This document shows positions 1 to 12,186 of a DNA stretch of 12,186 nt, one piece after another. How positions within the stretch are numbered: position 1 is the first letter of the stretch; each line of letters begins with the position of its first letter. Location: positions 1 through 12,186 of the forward strand of contig CAZSVG010000011.1 of assembly GCA_964610195.1 (NCBI GenBank), read 5' to 3'. A program made the translations under genes and the position numbers. Under the pieces are notes generated by a model, which was given only the letters and a program-made list of their open reading frames with translations, made no database searches and was not told the DNA's origin. The stretch is from an uncultured Candidatus Cloacimonadota bacterium (GTDB lineage: Bacteria > Cloacimonadota > Cloacimonadia > Cloacimonadales > JAJBBL01).

Positions 1-2224
1 TCCCATTGCGATAAATATTGTATCCTTCCAAAGCACGGTTTCGAATATTTTCTATTCCGGGAGATTCCCAATAGAGATTGACATAGTCAGCACCCGATTG
101 GGCAGTCAGATTCTGAGGAGGAATCAGAAATATGGTTACATTCTGCTGATCGGAAAGAGAAGATTCATACAAACCATCGTATGCATCTGTTCCATATAAT
201 ACCGAGATCTGGTATTGGTAGTTACCATTATTCAAACCTTCATCCAGATAATTTTGGATGTCCGGTGCTTCTATTGAAAAAATCATACTCCCATTACGGT
301 AGATATTATAGCCGGTAATCTCATCCGGCCTGAATCCCACATTTATTGGCGCTATCCAATTTAAGAGAACATTATCAATATTGACCACCTCGACACTGAA
401 AACCTCTATACCGTTCAGATTGTCGATAGTACTGAAAGACCAGACAGCTGACCATGAGCTTGGATAAGCTCCATTATTGGAATTTACTCTCCAATAGTAT
501 GTTGTATTTAAATCCAGATTTCCAACCCAATAAGCTGTGGTAGCCTGATTATGGGTCAGAACAAGATCGTCAAACTCGGCGTCAGTGGCAACCTGGAGAG
601 TATAATAGACAGCATTGGTAACAGATTGCCATTGTAATTGAACATTAGTCGCCAACTCTTCCGTTTCATCGGGTGGTAAAAGCAATAGAGGCGGATCTGT
701 TGGGTCAGGAATGTCACCTATAACAAAAATTTGTTCGCCACTAAAGGAAGAACCGGCATATATATGGTCTATCGCCTGAACACTCCAGTAATAGACCCCT
801 TCTTCCAGGTAATTCAGTAGAGCACTGTTCGATTTATACTTGCCCAATGAAGCCACCCTTCGAAAACCAGTGTCCGGATCTGCCATGGGAGAAATTATAT
901 CAAGCCCATTTGATATACTCCCCACCCTTAGATTATATGTTAATCCGGTAGCCGGAGTTGTTCCTCCTGCTGATTGTTCCCAGTTAAATTGGACTCCATC
1001 GTCTGTGAGGGTAGTAAACAGACCTGTTGGGGCAGAGGCCAAACTATTGGTGGTAGGAATTATATTTTCATAAATTGTGGCTATATAGTCCTGTGAGGCA
1101 GCCCAACCAATCAAGAGAAAGTCCAGTTTACCGTCATTATTATAATCTGCGGGGACTACTGTTGATCTTCGGGCATTGATAAAAGTTAAATTTGAATTAG
1201 TAAAAGTATCAGTTCCTGTCTGGAGATAAATCCTGGTAGTCCAGGCACCTTCGATCTCTCCGGTGACTACAAGATCAAGAAGTCCGTTATTATTAAAATC
1301 ACCCCAGACTACATAACCCTGTCTGGTCCCGATAATATCTGCATTTATATTGGTGAAGGTGCCATTCCCATTATTTCTGTAAATAACCGTGAACTTTACT
1401 TCGGCATTATCTGAACCATTCATCAGGATATCGAGATATCCGTCATTATTATAATCTCCCAGAGATATAGAGGAATATCGTAAACCGATCAAGGGTTGAG
1501 CCGATAGAGTAAAAGTTCCATCCCCATTATTGATATAGATATAGGAGACATAATTAAAAGACCCGATTCTGCCAGTGACAACAACATCCAACCATCCGTT
1601 GTTATTCAGGTCACCACCTGCTACTGCTCCATGTGTAACTCCGGTGATATTTGCATCCAGATCAGTGAAGATAAAGTCTCCATTATTAATATATATTGAG
1701 GTAATCCCTTCTCCATTCTGTAACTCTCCGGCAACCATGATATCCAATAATCCGTCGTTATTAAAATCACCAAGGGTCAAATCCCCTCGATAAAGGTCAG
1801 GGATGTCACTTATTATTTCGGTAAAGGTTTCATTGCCGTTATTCATATAGATCTTGAAGTAGGAACTTCCACCTAAACCGGTATAACCGAACATGACTAT
1901 ATCATTCCAGCCGTTGTTGTTAAGATCTCCCACTACCGCTTTACTGACCCCGAGATCAAAAAGCCCTGCTTCCATGTCACTGAAAGTCCCATCTCCATTG
2001 TTACGATATATTTCGGTAAAGGGAAGATTTTCGTTACCTGTTCCGTATGTATAACCGGTGATCAGAATGTCGAGATGACCATTATTATTAAAATCACTCC
2101 AGACAGCGTCACCGAAGTAAACCTCCTGTAAACCAACATCCAGAGCTGTAAAACTAAGTTGGCCATATAGTGTTGATAGCAAAAATAACATCATTATTGC
2201 TATACCTATAGACATTATTTTCAT
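1..2224 (-). CDS. Secreted FG-GAP/VCBS-repeat beta-propeller protein with FN3-like domains. Partial: N-terminal ~741 aa are in the window and the C-terminus lies beyond the 5' edge.
   Basis: Manual reverse-complement translation from ATG (complement of 2222-2224) reads MKIMSIGIAIMMLFLLSTLYGQLSFTALDVG..., an N-terminal signal peptide. GGAGGA sits 3 nt upstream of the ATG. Seven D-x-N-x-D-G-x-x-D blades are seen (GDLNNNGWNDIV, GDFNNDGLLDIMVAG, GDLNNNGWLDVVVTG, GDYNNDGYLDIL, GDFNNNGLLDLVVTG, ADYNNDGKLDFLLIG), the pattern of FG-GAP/VCBS integrin-alpha-like propellers. These are followed by Ig/FN3-like segments with the YYW motif (YYWSVQAIDH, TYYWRVNS). The frame stays open to position 1. No plus-strand ORF longer than 77 aa overlaps it. 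The track does not list it because the stop codon is outside the window. Confidence 0.7.
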   Translation of the reverse strand, partial: MKIMSIGIAIMMLFLLSTLYGQLSFTALDVGLQEVYFGDAVWSDFNNNGHLDILITGYTYGTGNENLPFTEIYRNNGDGTFSDMEAGLFDLGVSKAVVGDLNNNGWNDIVMFGYTGLGGSSYFKIYMNNGNETFTEIISDIPDLYRGDLTLGDFNNDGLLDIMVAGELQNGEGITSIYINNGDFIFTDLDANITGVTHGAVAGGDLNNNGWLDVVVTGRIGSFNYVSYIYINNGDGTFTLSAQPLIGLRYSSISLGDYNNDGYLDILMNGSDNAEVKFTVIYRNNGNGTFTNINADIIGTRQGYVVWGDFNNNGLLDLVVTGEIEGAWTTRIYLQTGTDTFTNSNLTFINARRSTVVPADYNNDGKLDFLLIGWAASQDYIATIYENIIPTTNSLASAPTGLFTTLTDDGVQFNWEQSAGGTTPATGLTYNLRVGSISNGLDIISPMADPDTGFRRVASLGKYKSNSALLNYLEEGVYYWSVQAIDHIYAGSSFSGEQIFVIGDIPDPTDPPLLLLPPDETEELATNVQLQWQSVTNAVYYTLQVATDAEFDDLVLTHNQATTAYWVGNLDLNTTYYWRVNSNNGAYPSSWSAVWSFSTIDNLNGIEVFSVEVVNIDNVLLNWIAPINVGFRPDEITGYNIYRNGSMIFSIEAPDIQNYLDEGLNNGNYQYQISVLYGTDAYDGLYESSLSDQQNVTIFLIPPQNLTAQSGADYVNLYWESPGIENIRNRALEGYNIYRNG

Positions 2225-2447: not shown

Positions 2448-3245
2448 TTATTTGATCTGGATATTTACAACTGCTTTTGGTTCCAGAATCTGCAGGCTGA
2501 ATGATTCTGTCAGAAAGAGGGTAACCTCTTTACTGGTATGATGTTCATAACCAATAGAAAAATCAGAGCCGAGAACCATTTTGAAATCTCCACCTCTGGT
2601 CGAGACTAATAGTCCGGAATCGATAAAGTTTGAGAGGATTATTTCTCCCTGCAAAACATCTTCGATCTGGGGAAAGAGGGGATAACATTCGGCAAAGTAA
2701 TTGACCGTCTTCCAAACTGAGGGTGGTAAAATCAGGGAATATGGTCCTTCTATGGCATTGTCATTCATCTTCAAAACTGCTTCTGTTAATGATGCTAACC
2801 ATTTAGACGGATCTTTGGGAAAACTTATAGCTTCTTTATTAACCGTCATTAATCCTTCTATACCAGCATCTTTTAAACCGTAATAGATCGCTTTTTCTTC
2901 GAATTCAGCAATCTGTTTGACTCCGGTCATCAAGTTATCCAATTCGATATCTTCTGCTCCCCGAGCAGCATTATCCAGGTCCCAGATCTTGAGAGTAAAA
3001 CTAACTCTCGGTTCTACTGCCGGTATGATCTTGCGGATTCCGTATGATATTCCTTTATTCTTAGCCGGTTCAACTATTTTCATTCTACCTGTAGGTATAC
3101 CGGCAAAATCCCAACCTTTAGGTCCTTCTATATCAACTACTTTTCGTGCGGAAAGTAAGCTAATCAATCCTTTTTTAGCCTGATCTTCGATCTGCTCCCA
3201 GGCCTCTTCTGTAATTGGTGCTAAATTGCGTCTTAAGATACTCAT
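2448..3245 (-). CDS. enc: Family 1 encapsulin nanocompartment shell protein (Linocin M18-like, HK97 fold).
   Basis: The 265-aa protein can be aligned along its whole length, from memory, with the Thermotoga maritima encapsulin. Examples: [19 protein letters not shown] vs [44 protein letters not shown] vs [52 protein letters not shown] vs [35 protein letters not shown] lies 8 nt upstream of the ATG. The gap to the upstream cargo gene is 13 nt. Confidence 0.9.
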   Translation of the reverse strand: [265 protein letters not shown]

Positions 3246-3258
3246 GATTCATTTCCTC

Positions 3259-3594
3259 CTATTTCAGTTTCCCGATCCCCAGATCACTCTCTTTACTCTC
3301 CCCTTCTTCATCTTCAAGTTCGGTAACGGGTTTGGTAGTAAAGAGATAAGTTCTCATCTGTTCGTCCCAACCGGGCATATTACGTCTGAGCCATTCCAAA
3401 ACCATGACAGCATGTTCAATCTCTTCATCACGATTATGGGCTACTATTTTTTTTAATTCCGGATCTGTTGCGGTGGCTACCCTTTGCTGGTACCAATCAA
3501 CCGCTTCAATTTCCTCTTTCAAGCTGTTTAATGCTCTTGAAAAATCACGGTCATTTTTTGTTAATTCATCAACGGGCTCATGATAAGCACTCAT
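3259..3594 (-). CDS. encFtn: Encapsulin cargo: encapsulated ferritin-like protein (EncFtn/Flp) with C-terminal cargo-loading peptide.
   Basis: The 111-aa protein has a helical ferritin-like core carrying Glu-rich and E-x-x-H motifs typical of the EncFtn di-iron ferroxidase site (EEIEAVDWYQQR, DEEIEHAVMVLEW). Its C-terminal tail ...EDEEGESKESDLGIGKLK matches the encapsulin targeting-peptide consensus (D/S-L-G-I-G-x-L-K). AAAGGAGGA lies upstream of the ATG. The gene sits immediately upstream of, and co-oriented with, the shell gene. Confidence 0.85.
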   Translation of the reverse strand: MSAYHEPVDELTKNDRDFSRALNSLKEEIEAVDWYQQRVATATDPELKKIVAHNRDEEIEHAVMVLEWLRRNMPGWDEQMRTYLFTTKPVTELEDEEGESKESDLGIGKLK

Positions 3595-8992: not shown

Positions 8993-9817
8993 CTATTTTG
9001 ATATTATTATCTCTGTATTGCTCAACAGACTATTCACCAGATTATTGATCAGGTCCTGCCTTCTTTCTTGCATTACTTCTTCTCTCACGTCATCCATCAC
9101 TTCGGTAAATGGTCTATCAATAGTTCTGTTCCTTTTGTCGGTATAACGAACAAGATAAATTCCGTTACTTACCGGAACCCTTACAAAGCGGTATTGACTG
9201 ACATTACTCAAACTGTTCCAGATTTGGGGACCCATCTCTTCAGAAGTCTGATAACCAACAAAACCGTCTGTCTCTCTGCTTCTCTCCTGGGAGTAATTCC
9301 TGGCAGCTTGAGCAAAAGTTAGATTATCATTAACTATCATTGTCGCCACTGAATCAGCCATGGTATTATTATTTAACAAGATTCTCTGGATTCTGTATTC
9401 TTCACGCTCTGTTGTATATCTGCTTTTGTGTATTTGATAGTGATTGAAGACCTCTGATTCGGTTAGCTCTATATCATTAATAACAGAAGCCAGCAAAGCA
9501 TTGGCTTTGATCCTCTTTTCAGCAATCCTGATCCTTTCCCGGACCTCAGGATACTCATCTATTCCTCTTTTATGAGCTTCCTGGGCCAAAACCGTTAATT
9601 TGATAAGGTCCTCTATTTTCTCTCTTAATTCAGCATCACTTAACCCCTCAAGGGAGGTTAGATCGGTAAATTCCAATATCGAATTGAGAGTTAAAACCTC
9701 TCTGTTAACTGTAGCAATAATCTCCTGGTCATCAGGATGTTGATCTCTGCTGCAGGAGAGAATCACTAACCCTGTTATTAATACTAACAGGCAAAATAAA
9801 CTCTTTTTCTTCATCAT
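8993..9817 (-). CDS. SurA/PrsA-like lipoprotein with a degenerate, probably catalytically inactive, parvulin domain.
   Basis: It has a lipoprotein signal with lipobox LSC-S and a SurA-N-like helical region. The C-terminal parvulin-like fold (FAQAARNYSQ...GFVGYQT...PVSNGIYLVRY) has both catalytic His positions replaced (QRILL for HIL, IYLV for YHII). A 9-nt gap separates it from surA. Confidence 0.65.
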   Translation of the reverse strand: MMKKKSLFCLLVLITGLVILSCSRDQHPDDQEIIATVNREVLTLNSILEFTDLTSLEGLSDAELREKIEDLIKLTVLAQEAHKRGIDEYPEVRERIRIAEKRIKANALLASVINDIELTESEVFNHYQIHKSRYTTEREEYRIQRILLNNNTMADSVATMIVNDNLTFAQAARNYSQERSRETDGFVGYQTSEEMGPQIWNSLSNVSQYRFVRVPVSNGIYLVRYTDKRNRTIDRPFTEVMDDVREEVMQERRQDLINNLVNSLLSNTEIIISK

Positions 9818-11079
9818 TGCGGCTCAAAAGGCAGGGTATAAATTACTCTCAGATATGGTTTTTTACTTTCATCGAGAGTATTAGGCGGATAGAAAGAGAT
9901 AAAGCTGTTGTCTTTATTCTCCAACGAAGAACTTATCACCAGACCGTAATTATCTTTCAGTTCCGATATATGAGATTGCACTATGGAGGTTATGTTTACA
10001 GCTACCGAATCCGCCGTTTCACTGATTATAGATGTATAAGTGGGATTAACTATTCCCATATTTTCTACAGCAATCGGTAAACTACCAATCTCTTCAGGAG
10101 AAAATTCATTGATCAGATAGTAGGGATAGATTTGAAAGAGCTGCTCAGCAAAATGTGAAGCTTCATTTTGGGTCTGCTTAAAAAGGATTAGTTCTGCTTT
10201 ATTAACTGTTATCTTCTTTAGATCATCATCTTCCGGAAGAGGATTGAAATATTCACTTTGCAGGTTTAACTTCACCACACTTCTCGTGGGAACTATATTT
10301 CCCACTAAAATCTCTTCCTCAATGTAATAACCATCAACAGGTTGTTTGGAATTGATAAAACTGTTATAAATAGGCATTCTTTCATAGGTAACAAAAGTTG
10401 TGTCTCCGGGAGCAGCCAGATATTCAAATTTCAGAACCGGTCCGTCTGATGTTTCTCTGGAAAAGAACTCCACATAGGAATTGTTATTATTTTCAGCTAA
10501 ATCAGCAAAAATGGCCAGACCATAAGTTTCCGGAGTATCCTTTATCCAACCCTGAATCAAATCGGTCATCAGATCCATGGGAAGATTTACCGTGAGAGTA
10601 CTGTCTGTTTCACTTATCTGTTGAACTATCTCCTCCAGAATGGTCATATTACTGTAATCATCCCAGCTTTGATGCCATAACGAATCCTGACCGGATTTCT
10701 CCCAGCTAACATGGAGAGGGTCCCAAATCTGGGAAATAGTTCCGAATCTGAGATTCATTCCTTCACTATTATAGTGTTTGTTCATAGTCAGGATGAGTTG
10801 GGGATCTTCCTGCAACACAAAATTACTGTCAGGAAGATTACTGAACCTGATCAGGGTAATAGACTCATTTCCCCGAAAATTACCCACAATGCTTTTAGTG
10901 TTTCGGATAAAATTTCCTGTCTCATTTTCATAAGCATAATAATATTCAAATAGATCTTCCGCTCTAATATCAACTAAATATGGGTGAAGATCAGTTCCTT
11001 CACCTATGACATTTTTTTTATCTGAACATCCTGAAATTAAGATCAAAATCAGGATGCTTATTACAATAACTACTCTCAT
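9814..11079 (-). CDS. Hypothetical lipoprotein of 421 aa.
   Basis: Signal peptide plus lipobox (ILISGC-SD). No motif I can place confidently. Possibly a Bacteroidota/FCB-type DUF lipoprotein. Its TGA stop overlaps the downstream ATG in ATGATGA, a 4-nt overlap that indicates translational coupling. Confidence 0.55.
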   Translation of the reverse strand: MRVVIVISILILILISGCSDKKNVIGEGTDLHPYLVDIRAEDLFEYYYAYENETGNFIRNTKSIVGNFRGNESITLIRFSNLPDSNFVLQEDPQLILTMNKHYNSEGMNLRFGTISQIWDPLHVSWEKSGQDSLWHQSWDDYSNMTILEEIVQQISETDSTLTVNLPMDLMTDLIQGWIKDTPETYGLAIFADLAENNNNSYVEFFSRETSDGPVLKFEYLAAPGDTTFVTYERMPIYNSFINSKQPVDGYYIEEEILVGNIVPTRSVVKLNLQSEYFNPLPEDDDLKKITVNKAELILFKQTQNEASHFAEQLFQIYPYYLINEFSPEEIGSLPIAVENMGIVNPTYTSIISETADSVAVNITSIVQSHISELKDNYGLVISSSLENKDNSFISFYPPNTLDESKKPYLRVIYTLPFEPQ

Positions 11080-11127
11080 TCTATTAATAGTTCCTTTTAG
11101 ATATATTTTTAGTAATAGTATTAGGTT

Positions 11128-11145
11128 TGGTGGATAGGGGGATAA
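11128..11145 (+). promoter_or_regulatory. Degenerate double DnaA-box module, GGTGGATAG at 11128-11136 followed after a 1-nt gap by GGGGATAA at 11138-11145.
   Basis: The two half-boxes have 2 mismatches each to TGTGGATAA. They share the extended ...GGATAAGTC context with the module at 11310-11326. Confidence 0.4.
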
Positions 11146-11203
11146 GTCAAGCTTAATGTTCGTAAGTTGTTACTTAAGTATGTTTTTATGCTTTCGGGAA
11201 GGG

Positions 11204-11212
11204 TGTGCATAA
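11204..11212 (+). promoter_or_regulatory. DnaA box with 1 mismatch (TGTGCATAA).
   Basis: It differs from the TGTGGATAA consensus at position 5. Confidence 0.45.
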
Positions 11213-11242
11213 CTTGTGTATATTTTTTTCCTCTCCTCTCTC

Positions 11243-11251
11243 TTATCCACA
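11243..11251 (-). promoter_or_regulatory. Perfect DnaA box (TTATCCACA on the plus strand).
   Basis: Exact 9-mer consensus in the opposite orientation to the 11318-11326 box, preceded by a CT-rich and T-rich tract. Confidence 0.6.
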
Positions 11252-11309
11252 TCTCTTTAGCAGCATTAATCATTGAATCTATTTCTCAACAACTATTAAC
11301 AAACAGCAA

Positions 11310-11326
11310 TGTGGATATGTGGATAA
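11310..11326 (+). promoter_or_regulatory. Tandem head-to-tail DnaA boxes: TGTGGATAT (1 mismatch) overlapping a perfect TGTGGATAA.
   Basis: The boxes occupy 11310-11318 and 11318-11326, located 40 nt below the dnaA stop codon. Confidence 0.6.
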
Positions 11327-11365
11327 GTCGATTTGAGTTCATTGATATCTAAGATAGTCAAGGAG

Positions 11366-12186
11366 TTAGCTTACTGTGCGGATGTCTTTGATGATTTTTT
11401 CTAATTGAATGCGAAAATTGACATCATTCCGGAATAATTTTTCGACATGTTTCTTAGCATGTAAAACGGTAGTATGATCTTTTCTTTGATAGTAAAGGGC
11501 GATATCTTTCAGCGAGAGTTGAGGGATCAGAAGATTGGTCAGATACATCGCTACCTGTCTGGGGAATACTATATTCTTCTTTCTCGTATTACCAAGTAAT
11601 TGACCCGGCGTAAGACTGAAATGAGCACAGACTTTGTTCATGACACTGTTAATATTGATATCAATGATCTTGTCCGAGATCATATCATTCAATATCTCCT
11701 GGCAGAGAACTTTATCGATCTCATCAGGATTGAGATTATTATAAGAGCAATAAGCAAGGATCCTGATCAAGGAACCCTCCAGAGCCCTGACATTGCTGCT
11801 GATGTTTTCAGCCACGTATTCGAAAATATCTTCACTGAGAATGATATTCTCGGTTTCGGCCTTCTTTTTAAGAATGGCCATTCTGGTCTCGAAATCGGGA
11901 GTTTTCAGATCGGCCAGAAGTCCACATTCAAATCTGGTAACCAGTCTCTTCTCCAGGTCCTGGATATCTTTGGGAGGACGGTCACTGGTCATTACTATCT
12001 GCCGTTTGCTTTCATAAAGAGTATTGAACGTGTGGAAGAACTCTTCCTGGATACCCTCTTTCTTGGCCAGAAAATGAACATCGTCGATCAACAAAATATC
12101 GATATTACGATATTTACTCCTAAAATCAGGCATGGTATGATTTCTGATAGCATCGATCATTTGATTGGTGAACTCTTCAGCGGTTA
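11366..12186 (-). CDS. dnaA: Chromosomal replication initiator DnaA, partial. The C-terminal ~273 aa are in the window and the N-terminus lies beyond the 3' edge.
   Basis: The ORF-track start is artificial, since the frame stays open to the window edge (...TAEEFTNQMIDAIRNH...). The AAA+ region matches E. coli DnaA along its length (IDILLIDDVHFLAKKEGIQEEFFHTFNTLYESKRQIVMTSDRPPKDI, SNVRALEG). The domain IV signature QRKDHTTVLHAKKHVE is present. Confidence 0.95.
   Translation of the reverse strand, partial: TAEEFTNQMIDAIRNHTMPDFRSKYRNIDILLIDDVHFLAKKEGIQEEFFHTFNTLYESKRQIVMTSDRPPKDIQDLEKRLVTRFECGLLADLKTPDFETRMAILKKKAETENIILSEDIFEYVAENISSNVRALEGSLIRILAYCSYNNLNPDEIDKVLCQEILNDMISDKIIDININSVMNKVCAHFSLTPGQLLGNTRKKNIVFPRQVAMYLTNLLIPQLSLKDIALYYQRKDHTTVLHAKKHVEKLFRNDVNFRIQLEKIIKDIRTVS

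Follow-up and report, generated by a model that had tools for sequence, protein, structure and literature searches.

A probable Bacillus-type chromosomal origin between dnaA and an envelope-biogenesis operon in the Cloacimonadota

Introduction

Where does replication of the chromosome start in a bacterium whose dnaA is not followed by dnaN? The question is raised by a stretch of 12,186 nucleotides from an uncultured Candidatus Cloacimonadota bacterium (the whole of this stretch is called the window here). All genes of the window lie on the minus strand, and a gap of 286 bp (11080-11365) is found directly downstream of dnaA, on its 3' side. In a preliminary description, this gap was put forward as a candidate oriC or as half of one. 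No specific description of a Cloacimonadota oriC was found in the literature, including part of the supplementary table of the study that defines the basal unwinding system (BUS).

The sequence elements of the gap, their statistics, their conservation and their geometry point to the chromosomal oriC, or at least to the part of it in which DnaA assembles and the duplex is opened. Judged from the sequence, the probability of this reading is about 0.85. A canonical BUS, its conservation throughout the phylum and a geometry like that of Bacillus subtilis all lend support to the original proposal.

The gap and its neighbours

The identity of dnaA is clear from its translation, which is matched by the Pfam families Bac_DnaA (1e-32) and Bac_DnaA_C (2.7e-22) and contains the DHTTV box-recognition motif. 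The fragment is 60-89% identical to the DnaA of Cloacimonadota MAGs and about 50% identical or less to those recovered from other phyla.

On the other side of the gap, a lipoprotein gene sits where many bacteria have dnaN. Neither the annotation of the window nor Pfam revealed a DnaN gene downstream of dnaA, in agreement with the preliminary description. The operon that it placed there (lipoprotein-surA-pgpA) is indeed present, and it also includes a PpiC-like gene. The order past the lipoprotein gene is PpiC-like, SurA, PgpA, YajC, deformylase and formyltransferase. Further along the window follow DUF116, a gene of the fumarylacetoacetate-hydrolase family, an EncFtn/encapsulin pair and an FG-GAP repeat protein.

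The block of dnaA, origin and lipoprotein operon is syntenic among the relatives. In each of the 17 loci whose sequence extends past the BUS, a lipoprotein orthologue comes next, with its ATG at 48-64 bp from the box. These orthologues diverge fast and share only 23-57% identity. In most lineages the lipoprotein (9814-11079, minus strand) has kept a lipobox and an N-terminus resembling CTKKDNLTGNNWS, and its single Pfam match is a weak one, to Disaggr_repeat.

Two other features of the window are recorded here. At 2448-3594 (minus strand), an EncFtn-like ferritin gene is followed by a gene for an encapsulin (Linocin_M18) shell. The 89%-identical relative L001 has open reading frames of the same length at 18383-19530 (265 and 111 aa; not annotated), inverted with respect to the rest of the syntenic block. 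The large FG-GAP/fn3 repeat protein (2-2224, minus strand) carries a signal peptide, is cut off by the left end of the window and is unrelated to the origin.

The gap itself is AT-rich (GC 0.32-0.33). Rfam matched no family in the gap or in its counterparts from three relatives, so that a riboswitch or small RNA does not explain it. A scan for promoter and terminator consensus sequences detected no sigma-70-like promoter and no terminator inside the gap. As there is no terminator after dnaA, transcripts of dnaA may continue through the origin and into the operon. Terminator-like sites close to the gap are limited to a hairpin with a T-run on the plus strand (10979-11008), within the lipoprotein coding sequence, and its mirror on the minus strand. 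The features of the gap are listed in Table 1.

Table 1. Features of the gap downstream of dnaA and of the two genes that flank it (window coordinates).
Feature	Position	Strand	Description
Lipoprotein gene	9814..11079	-	First gene of the lipoprotein-PpiC-SurA-PgpA operon; ATG 49 bp past the BUS box
DNA unwinding element	11095..11124	.	AT tract and trios; least stable duplex of the gap
Five DnaA-trios	11110..11124	+	5'-TAG TAA TAG TAT TAG-3', equal to 3'-GAT TAT GAT AAT GAT-5'
Spacer of 4 bp, proximal box to first trio	11125..11128	.	GTTT on the plus strand, AAAC on the dnaA-sense strand
BUS box pair	11129..11145	-	On the dnaA-sense strand: distal TTATCCCCC (11137-11145) and proximal CTATCCACC (11129-11137), offset 8 nt
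CTTGAC motif	11146..11151	-	Abuts the distal BUS box; kept in most relatives, usually after an A-run
Tandem box pair	11204..11223	-	11-bp period; TGTGCATAA at 11204-11212 (1 mismatch) and TGTGTATAT at 11215-11223 (2 mismatches)
Perfect inverted box	11243..11251	+	Position -114
Degenerate box pair	11283..11301	+	TTCTCAACA at 11283-11291 (2 mismatches) and CTATTAACA (3 mismatches)
dnaA-proximal double box	11310..11326	-	TTATCCACA and TATCCACA on the dnaA-sense strand; perfect at 11318-11326, 1 mismatch at 11310-11318, offset 8 nt
dnaA, 3' part	11366..12186	-	End of the AAA+ domain and DNA-binding domain IV; runs off the right end of the window

DnaA boxes in the gap

The boxes were scored by their number of mismatches to the perfect DnaA box TTATCCACA. 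The only two perfect boxes of the window are both located in the gap, in opposite orientations (11243-11251 on the plus strand and 11318-11326 on the minus strand). The scan thereby reproduced the perfect boxes that had been described before, as well as the one-mismatch boxes at 11204-11212 and 11310-11318. The degenerate pair that had been claimed at 11128-11145 resolves into two boxes with two mismatches each (11129-11137 and 11137-11145). Additional weak boxes, absent from the preliminary description, are TGTGTATAT (11215-11223) and TTCTCAACA (11283-11291).

The whole window has seven boxes with no more than one mismatch, and four of them fall in the gap, where the rate outside it predicts 0.072 (Poisson P = 1e-6). 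With up to two mismatches allowed, the gap holds eight boxes against 1.3 expected (P = 6e-5), and its box score was reached by none of 5000 shuffles of the gap. The clustering is well above the background rate, as it should be in an oriC.

Part of this cluster is a repeated module. The sequence GTGGATANNNGGATAAGTC is found exactly at 11130-11148 and 11311-11329 and nowhere else. The direct repeat of a double box, previously given as about 180 bp apart, thus consists of two exact copies at a distance of 181 bp. Only 0.01 matches would be expected, and none of 200 shuffles gave two. The copy closest to dnaA, with its perfect and its one-mismatch box, is likely to be an anchor site of high affinity, and it is not followed by conserved trios. 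Between the two copies lie the degenerate pair at 11283-11301, the perfect inverted box and the tandem pair at 11204-11223. The degenerate pair is the counterpart of the conserved TGTTGATAAnTGTTGA block of the relatives, which is inverted and located at -164/-154 (positions are given relative to the BUS box). The sequence GTGGATAAG, with the perfect box at 11243-11251, is invariant in alignment A1. The tandem pair equals the TTATCCACAnnTTATCCACA of the relatives at -86/-75.

A basal unwinding system next to the operon

In the definition of the BUS, a DnaA box with no more than two mismatches is accompanied by trios of the form 3'-NAN-5', with GAT preferred near the box. The published search asks for a box no more than 16 bp away from a run of three or more NAN triplets, usually with the boxes in tandem, and the spacer from the better box peaks at 10-13 bp (Pelliciari et al. 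2021, PMC8287927).

Such an arrangement is found at the lipoprotein end of the gap. Read on the dnaA-sense strand, the layout is cTTGAC, TTATCCCCC with TATCCACC, the spacer aaac, the triplets CTA ATA CTA TTA CTA, aaaatatat and, further on, the ATG of the lipoprotein gene. The two boxes form a tandem pair with an offset of 8 nt, the proximal box 4 bp and the distal box 12 bp from the first trio, so that both are within the 16-bp limit. Five consecutive trios follow, with a GAT nearest to the box. These trios, which had escaped the preliminary description, are predicted to form the track on which the DnaA oligomer binds single-stranded DNA. With two mismatches each, the boxes of the window (GGTGGATAG at 11129-11137 and GGGGGATAA at 11137-11145) are the most degenerate of the family. 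The spacer is AAAC in the window and in its relatives L001 and L002 and more GC-rich elsewhere (gagc, gcgt, gccc), while the BUS definition expects a GC-rich cluster of about 4 bp.

A lenient BUS scan also finds matches in 14% of shuffled 12-kb windows. A single match therefore counts for little, and the argument depends on conservation. A scan of Bacillus and Neobacillus loci, which served as positive control, returned TTATCCACA tattaacaagcc CTACTATTATTACTACTA downstream of dnaA.

The stability of the duplex was calculated from nearest-neighbour energies in 30-mers. The segment 11095-11124 has a dG of -27.3 kcal/mol, compared to a window mean of -37.1 (sd 2.8), and is the second least stable 30-mer of the 12 kb. 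An easily melted, AT-rich element is thus located at the edge of the box array, as expected of an oriC. The same was seen in all 11 relatives tested, where the DNA just past the BUS boxes belongs to the top 0.00-0.02% of the locus in instability; in nine of the 11 it is less stable than anything upstream of dnaA. Three AT-rich tracts had earlier been named as suited to unwinding and placed between the two double-box modules. Only the tract at 11101-11123 turned out to be relevant, and it lies outside both modules, on the lipoprotein side. The other two (11181-11190 and 11218-11230) are neither unusually unstable nor conserved.

A second, mirror BUS at the dnaA-proximal double box was also considered. 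Its first triplet varies (TGT in the window, CAG in L002). Since the triplet phase is not conserved and the sequence aligns as degenerate inverted boxes, this candidate was rejected.

The lipoprotein operon may have its -35 element in the CTTGAC motif directly beside the distal BUS box. A search of the relatives yielded no consistent -10 element at 16-18 bp, and with 4 occurrences versus 5.2 expected the window shows no enrichment of the word. The assignment as -35 element was set aside for these reasons. CTTGAC-type words may still serve more generally as the -35 of the phylum, together with an UP element; a similar word precedes groES in locus L088.

Conservation across the Cloacimonadota

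The sample consisted of 20 Cloacimonadota dnaA loci from genome and metagenome scans, the closest with 89% DnaA identity and the longest of 20 kb. The module was found downstream of dnaA in 17 of the 20 loci, at DnaA identities down to 60%.

The spacer is exactly 4 bp long in 18 of 18 Cloacimonadota loci, and this length is also seen in other phyla. Within the trios, the middle base (T on the complementary strand) is kept in 15-18 of 18 loci for trios 1-5, and this base occupies the other two positions in 0-5 of 18. The 3-nt periodicity is confined to these five trios and stops after the fifth. Of the 17 tabulated downstream modules, 16 have GAT as first trio, a count raised by the search pattern, which admitted only CTA or TTG at this place; trios 2-5 are unbiased.

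When the window is aligned with its three closest relatives, the boxes and the BUS block show little or no change, and the stretches between them are scrambled. The spacing of the boxes is retained: relative to the BUS box, their positions are fixed within 1-2 bp across the phylum. Boxes in direct orientation occur at -189 (and -181), as a tandem at -86/-75 and as the BUS pair at -8/0. Inverted boxes occur at -164/-154/-143 and at -114. In the window, the dnaA side of this array is made up of 11318-11326 and 11310-11318 (-189/-181) and the weak pair 11283-11301 (-164/-154). Towards the BUS follow 11243-11251 (-114), 11215-11223 with 11204-11212 (-86/-75) and finally 11137-11145 with 11129-11137 (-8/0). 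The -189/-181 position and the -114 position are each kept in 14 of 18 loci. Positions fixed this closely would be expected of a structured initiation complex (orisome) rather than of a loose titration site.

Three lineages depart from this pattern. In L007, a complete chromosome (OY782499.1), no cluster follows dnaA: 62 bp (10790-10851) separate it from a convergent gene of the histidine-phosphatase family. L088 has no box cluster after dnaA (760-1020), groES being located there, and L083 has no box in the 200 bp of sequence available after its dnaA. Neither the lipoprotein gene nor a BUS was found elsewhere in the 2-20 kb searched in these three. L007 and L088 show that the origin is not always at the position downstream of dnaA in this phylum, which implies that either the origin or dnaA has moved within it. 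The lineages of L007, L083 and L088 probably have their origin at another place or in another arrangement.

The region upstream of dnaA and the GC skew

All relatives also have a non-coding region of 560-800 bp upstream of dnaA (for example, L001: 8761-9442; L004: 8654-9397; L006: 8819-9457), with 2-6 boxes and no trios. Relative to the dnaA ATG, a tandem TGTGGATAAnnTGTGGATAA with an 11-bp period occurs near -130 and a lone box near -30. The word gCTTGACAAAt is conserved about 200 bp before this ATG (L001-L012), and Rfam gave no match to the region. L007 keeps the upstream box set without the downstream cluster. The genes further upstream vary by lineage (rubrerythrin, GFO oxidoreductase, radical SAM, SmpB and others).

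A richer cluster with an unwinding element upstream of dnaA had been named beforehand as evidence that would reduce the gap to an autoregulatory or titration site. L001 and L002, the closest relatives, show no such cluster: upstream of dnaA they carry just two boxes and no trios, in DNA that is harder to melt than the downstream site. The upstream region looks like an autoregulated dnaA promoter or leader. It is either a long dnaA leader or the second half of a bipartite origin, and that its boxes would also be required for initiation is a minority possibility, with roughly one chance in three.

The cumulative GC skew of the window is lowest at about 10750-11250, and pieces of 12-20 kb from L001, L004 and L006 display V-shaped minima or inflections near dnaA. 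Of 71 genes beyond the BUS, 58 are directed away from it (82% co-directional, on that side only). The genes upstream of dnaA are mixed, with 24 on the minus and 28 on the plus strand, and do not clearly point away from the site. Per-gene skew is dominated by the coding strand, and the replication signal in it is weak. The skew of dnaA itself is near zero. The attempt to place the switch upstream or downstream of dnaA by per-gene skew was underpowered and was abandoned. Overall, the skew is compatible with an origin at the gap and not decisive, given the short pieces, the dependence on the coding strand and the mixed genes upstream.

Alternative explanations

The DnaA boxes might also belong to a site that regulates the lipoprotein-SurA operon, or that titrates DnaA like datA or DARS, with replication starting elsewhere. 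The operon is close: the lipoprotein ATG lies 48-64 bp beyond the boxes in every lineage, so that the operon's promoter or leader must overlap with the unwinding element and the DnaA array. The conserved CTTGAC by the boxes could be the -35 element of such a promoter, L007 and L088 have a dnaA without the downstream cluster, and the skew does not settle the matter. Neither function, however, would call for a phased 3-nt trio track at 4 bp from two paired boxes or for the most easily melted duplex of the locus beside it, and the layout agrees with that of origin unwinding modules established by experiment. An orisome is suggested instead by the eight boxes, which are spread over 200 bp with positions constant to 1-2 bp, and the gap yielded no sigma-70-like promoter. 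A purely regulatory or titrating role is therefore considered unlikely.

In Escherichia coli, oriC is separated from dnaA. The gap could similarly be a conserved relic of an ancestral dnaA-linked origin that no longer fires, the active origin having moved. Some Cloacimonadota without a cluster at dnaA (L007, L088) indicate that the origin or dnaA can indeed move, and each BUS box of the window has two mismatches. Decay would be expected in a relic, yet the boxes, the length of the spacer, the phase of the trios and the positions are all kept down to 60% DnaA identity, in contrast to the DNA between the boxes and the neighbouring gene, which are free to diverge. The local skew minimum also coincides with the site, and a relic is regarded as very improbable. 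Hardly any weight is left for a chance cluster of box-like words in AT-rich intergenic DNA. The composition of the gap (GC 0.32-0.33) and the 14% of shuffled windows with a lenient BUS match would favour it, but a Poisson P of 1e-6 with none of 5000 composition-matched shuffles, a module found twice where 0.01 is expected, and conservation in 17 other genomes speak against it. The preferred reading thus remains that of a chromosomal origin, very probably a textbook one of the Bacillus type: real but ordinary.

Proposed mechanism and implications

By analogy with characterized origins, DnaA binding, unwinding of the duplex and firing of the origin would all take place at 11080-11365. As in B. 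subtilis, DnaA would bind double-stranded boxes that form a fixed array along the dnaA-sense strand. This array would run from the anchor double box by the dnaA stop codon over the inverted boxes and the tandem pair to the double box at 11129-11145. From the latter, an oligomer of ATP-DnaA would extend onto the five trios of the plus strand (11110-11124). The oligomer would thereby stretch and open the adjoining AT-rich DNA at about 11095-11124, where the helicase would be loaded. Forks would then leave in both directions, the leftward one (in window coordinates) being co-directional with every gene of the window.

An origin of this kind would be placed at base-pair resolution in an uncultured phylum that is common in biotechnology (the Cloacimonadota of anaerobic digesters). 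It could be put to use in the finishing of genomes, in coordinate conventions and in the estimation of growth rates from metagenomic coverage (peak-to-trough ratio). The locus would also add an independent phylum to the evidence that the unwinding module of box pair plus trios is ancestral in bacteria, and the module survives the loss of the dnaA-dnaN linkage. The general view of origin function is unchanged.

The sole peculiarity of the locus is its neighbour, the conserved envelope-biogenesis operon in place of dnaN. A functional coupling of the origin and this operon, with the rigid box positions (partly shared with Rubrobacter and the Gemmatimonadota) as an ancestral orisome blueprint wider than the BUS, is a speculative and rather doubtful extension. 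If the coupling were real, DnaA occupancy or opening of the origin could gate the genes for outer-membrane biogenesis once per cell cycle. Alternatively, transcription into the unwinding element could activate initiation.

Comparison with known systems

Several DnaA boxes in non-coding DNA are not unique to origins. E. coli has box clusters of another kind in datA, DARS1/2 and DnaA-regulated promoters, and the gap resembles these in its boxes. No box-adjacent trio track and no unwinding element are known from datA, DARS or DnaA-regulated promoters, whereas both are present at 11080-11365.

Bipartite origins flank dnaA, as incA/B and incC do in B. subtilis and oriC1 and oriC2 in Helicobacter pylori. 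In the type represented by these two species, the unwinding element resides in the part downstream of dnaA. The Cloacimonadota relatives likewise have boxes on both sides of dnaA and the unwinding module in the downstream cluster. They differ in that their upstream set is small (2-6 boxes) and resembles an autoregulated promoter or leader.

The module of double box, 4-nt spacer and CTA trios is also found downstream of dnaA in loci from Rubrobacter, Gemmatimonadota and Clostridia. Several of the Cloacimonadota box offsets (about -164/-153, -113, -85/-74 and -8/0) recur in distant phyla, namely in Rubrobacter (L073 and L076), in Gemmatimonadota (L018) and in Bacillota (L020). The double box TTATCCACATATCCACA is even identical in Rubrobacter, a hint that the layout of the orisome may be conserved over more than the BUS.

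The closest parallel is the incC part of the B. subtilis oriC. It is located between dnaA and dnaN and comprises DnaA-boxes #6 and #7, a GC cluster, the DnaA-trios and an AT-rich 27-mer (Richardson et al. 2016, 2019; Pelliciari et al. 2021, PMC8287927). In Table S1 of the BUS survey, B. subtilis is entered (3' to 5') as AATAGGTGT, TTAGGTGT, CCGG and GATGATAATGAAGATGAT, with trios that start GATGAT and a spacer of 12 (Pelliciari et al. 2021, PMC8287927). There, the unwinding module has been defined by experiment, whereas the Cloacimonadota site is predicted from its sequence. The two differ in their neighbour (the lipoprotein-PpiC-SurA-PgpA operon here, dnaN in B. subtilis) and in their spacer (AAAC here, GC-rich in B. 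subtilis). Both BUS boxes are degenerate here, while the distal one is perfect in B. subtilis, and five trios are found here instead of about seven to nine. The BUS pair at 11129-11145 is the counterpart of DnaA-boxes #6/#7. Like these, it lies immediately downstream of dnaA and in the same orientation relative to it. In both systems, the boxes are offset by 8 nt and a 4-nt spacer is followed by 3'-GAT-5' trios 12 bp from the distal box. After the trios comes AT-rich DNA, and then the next gene.
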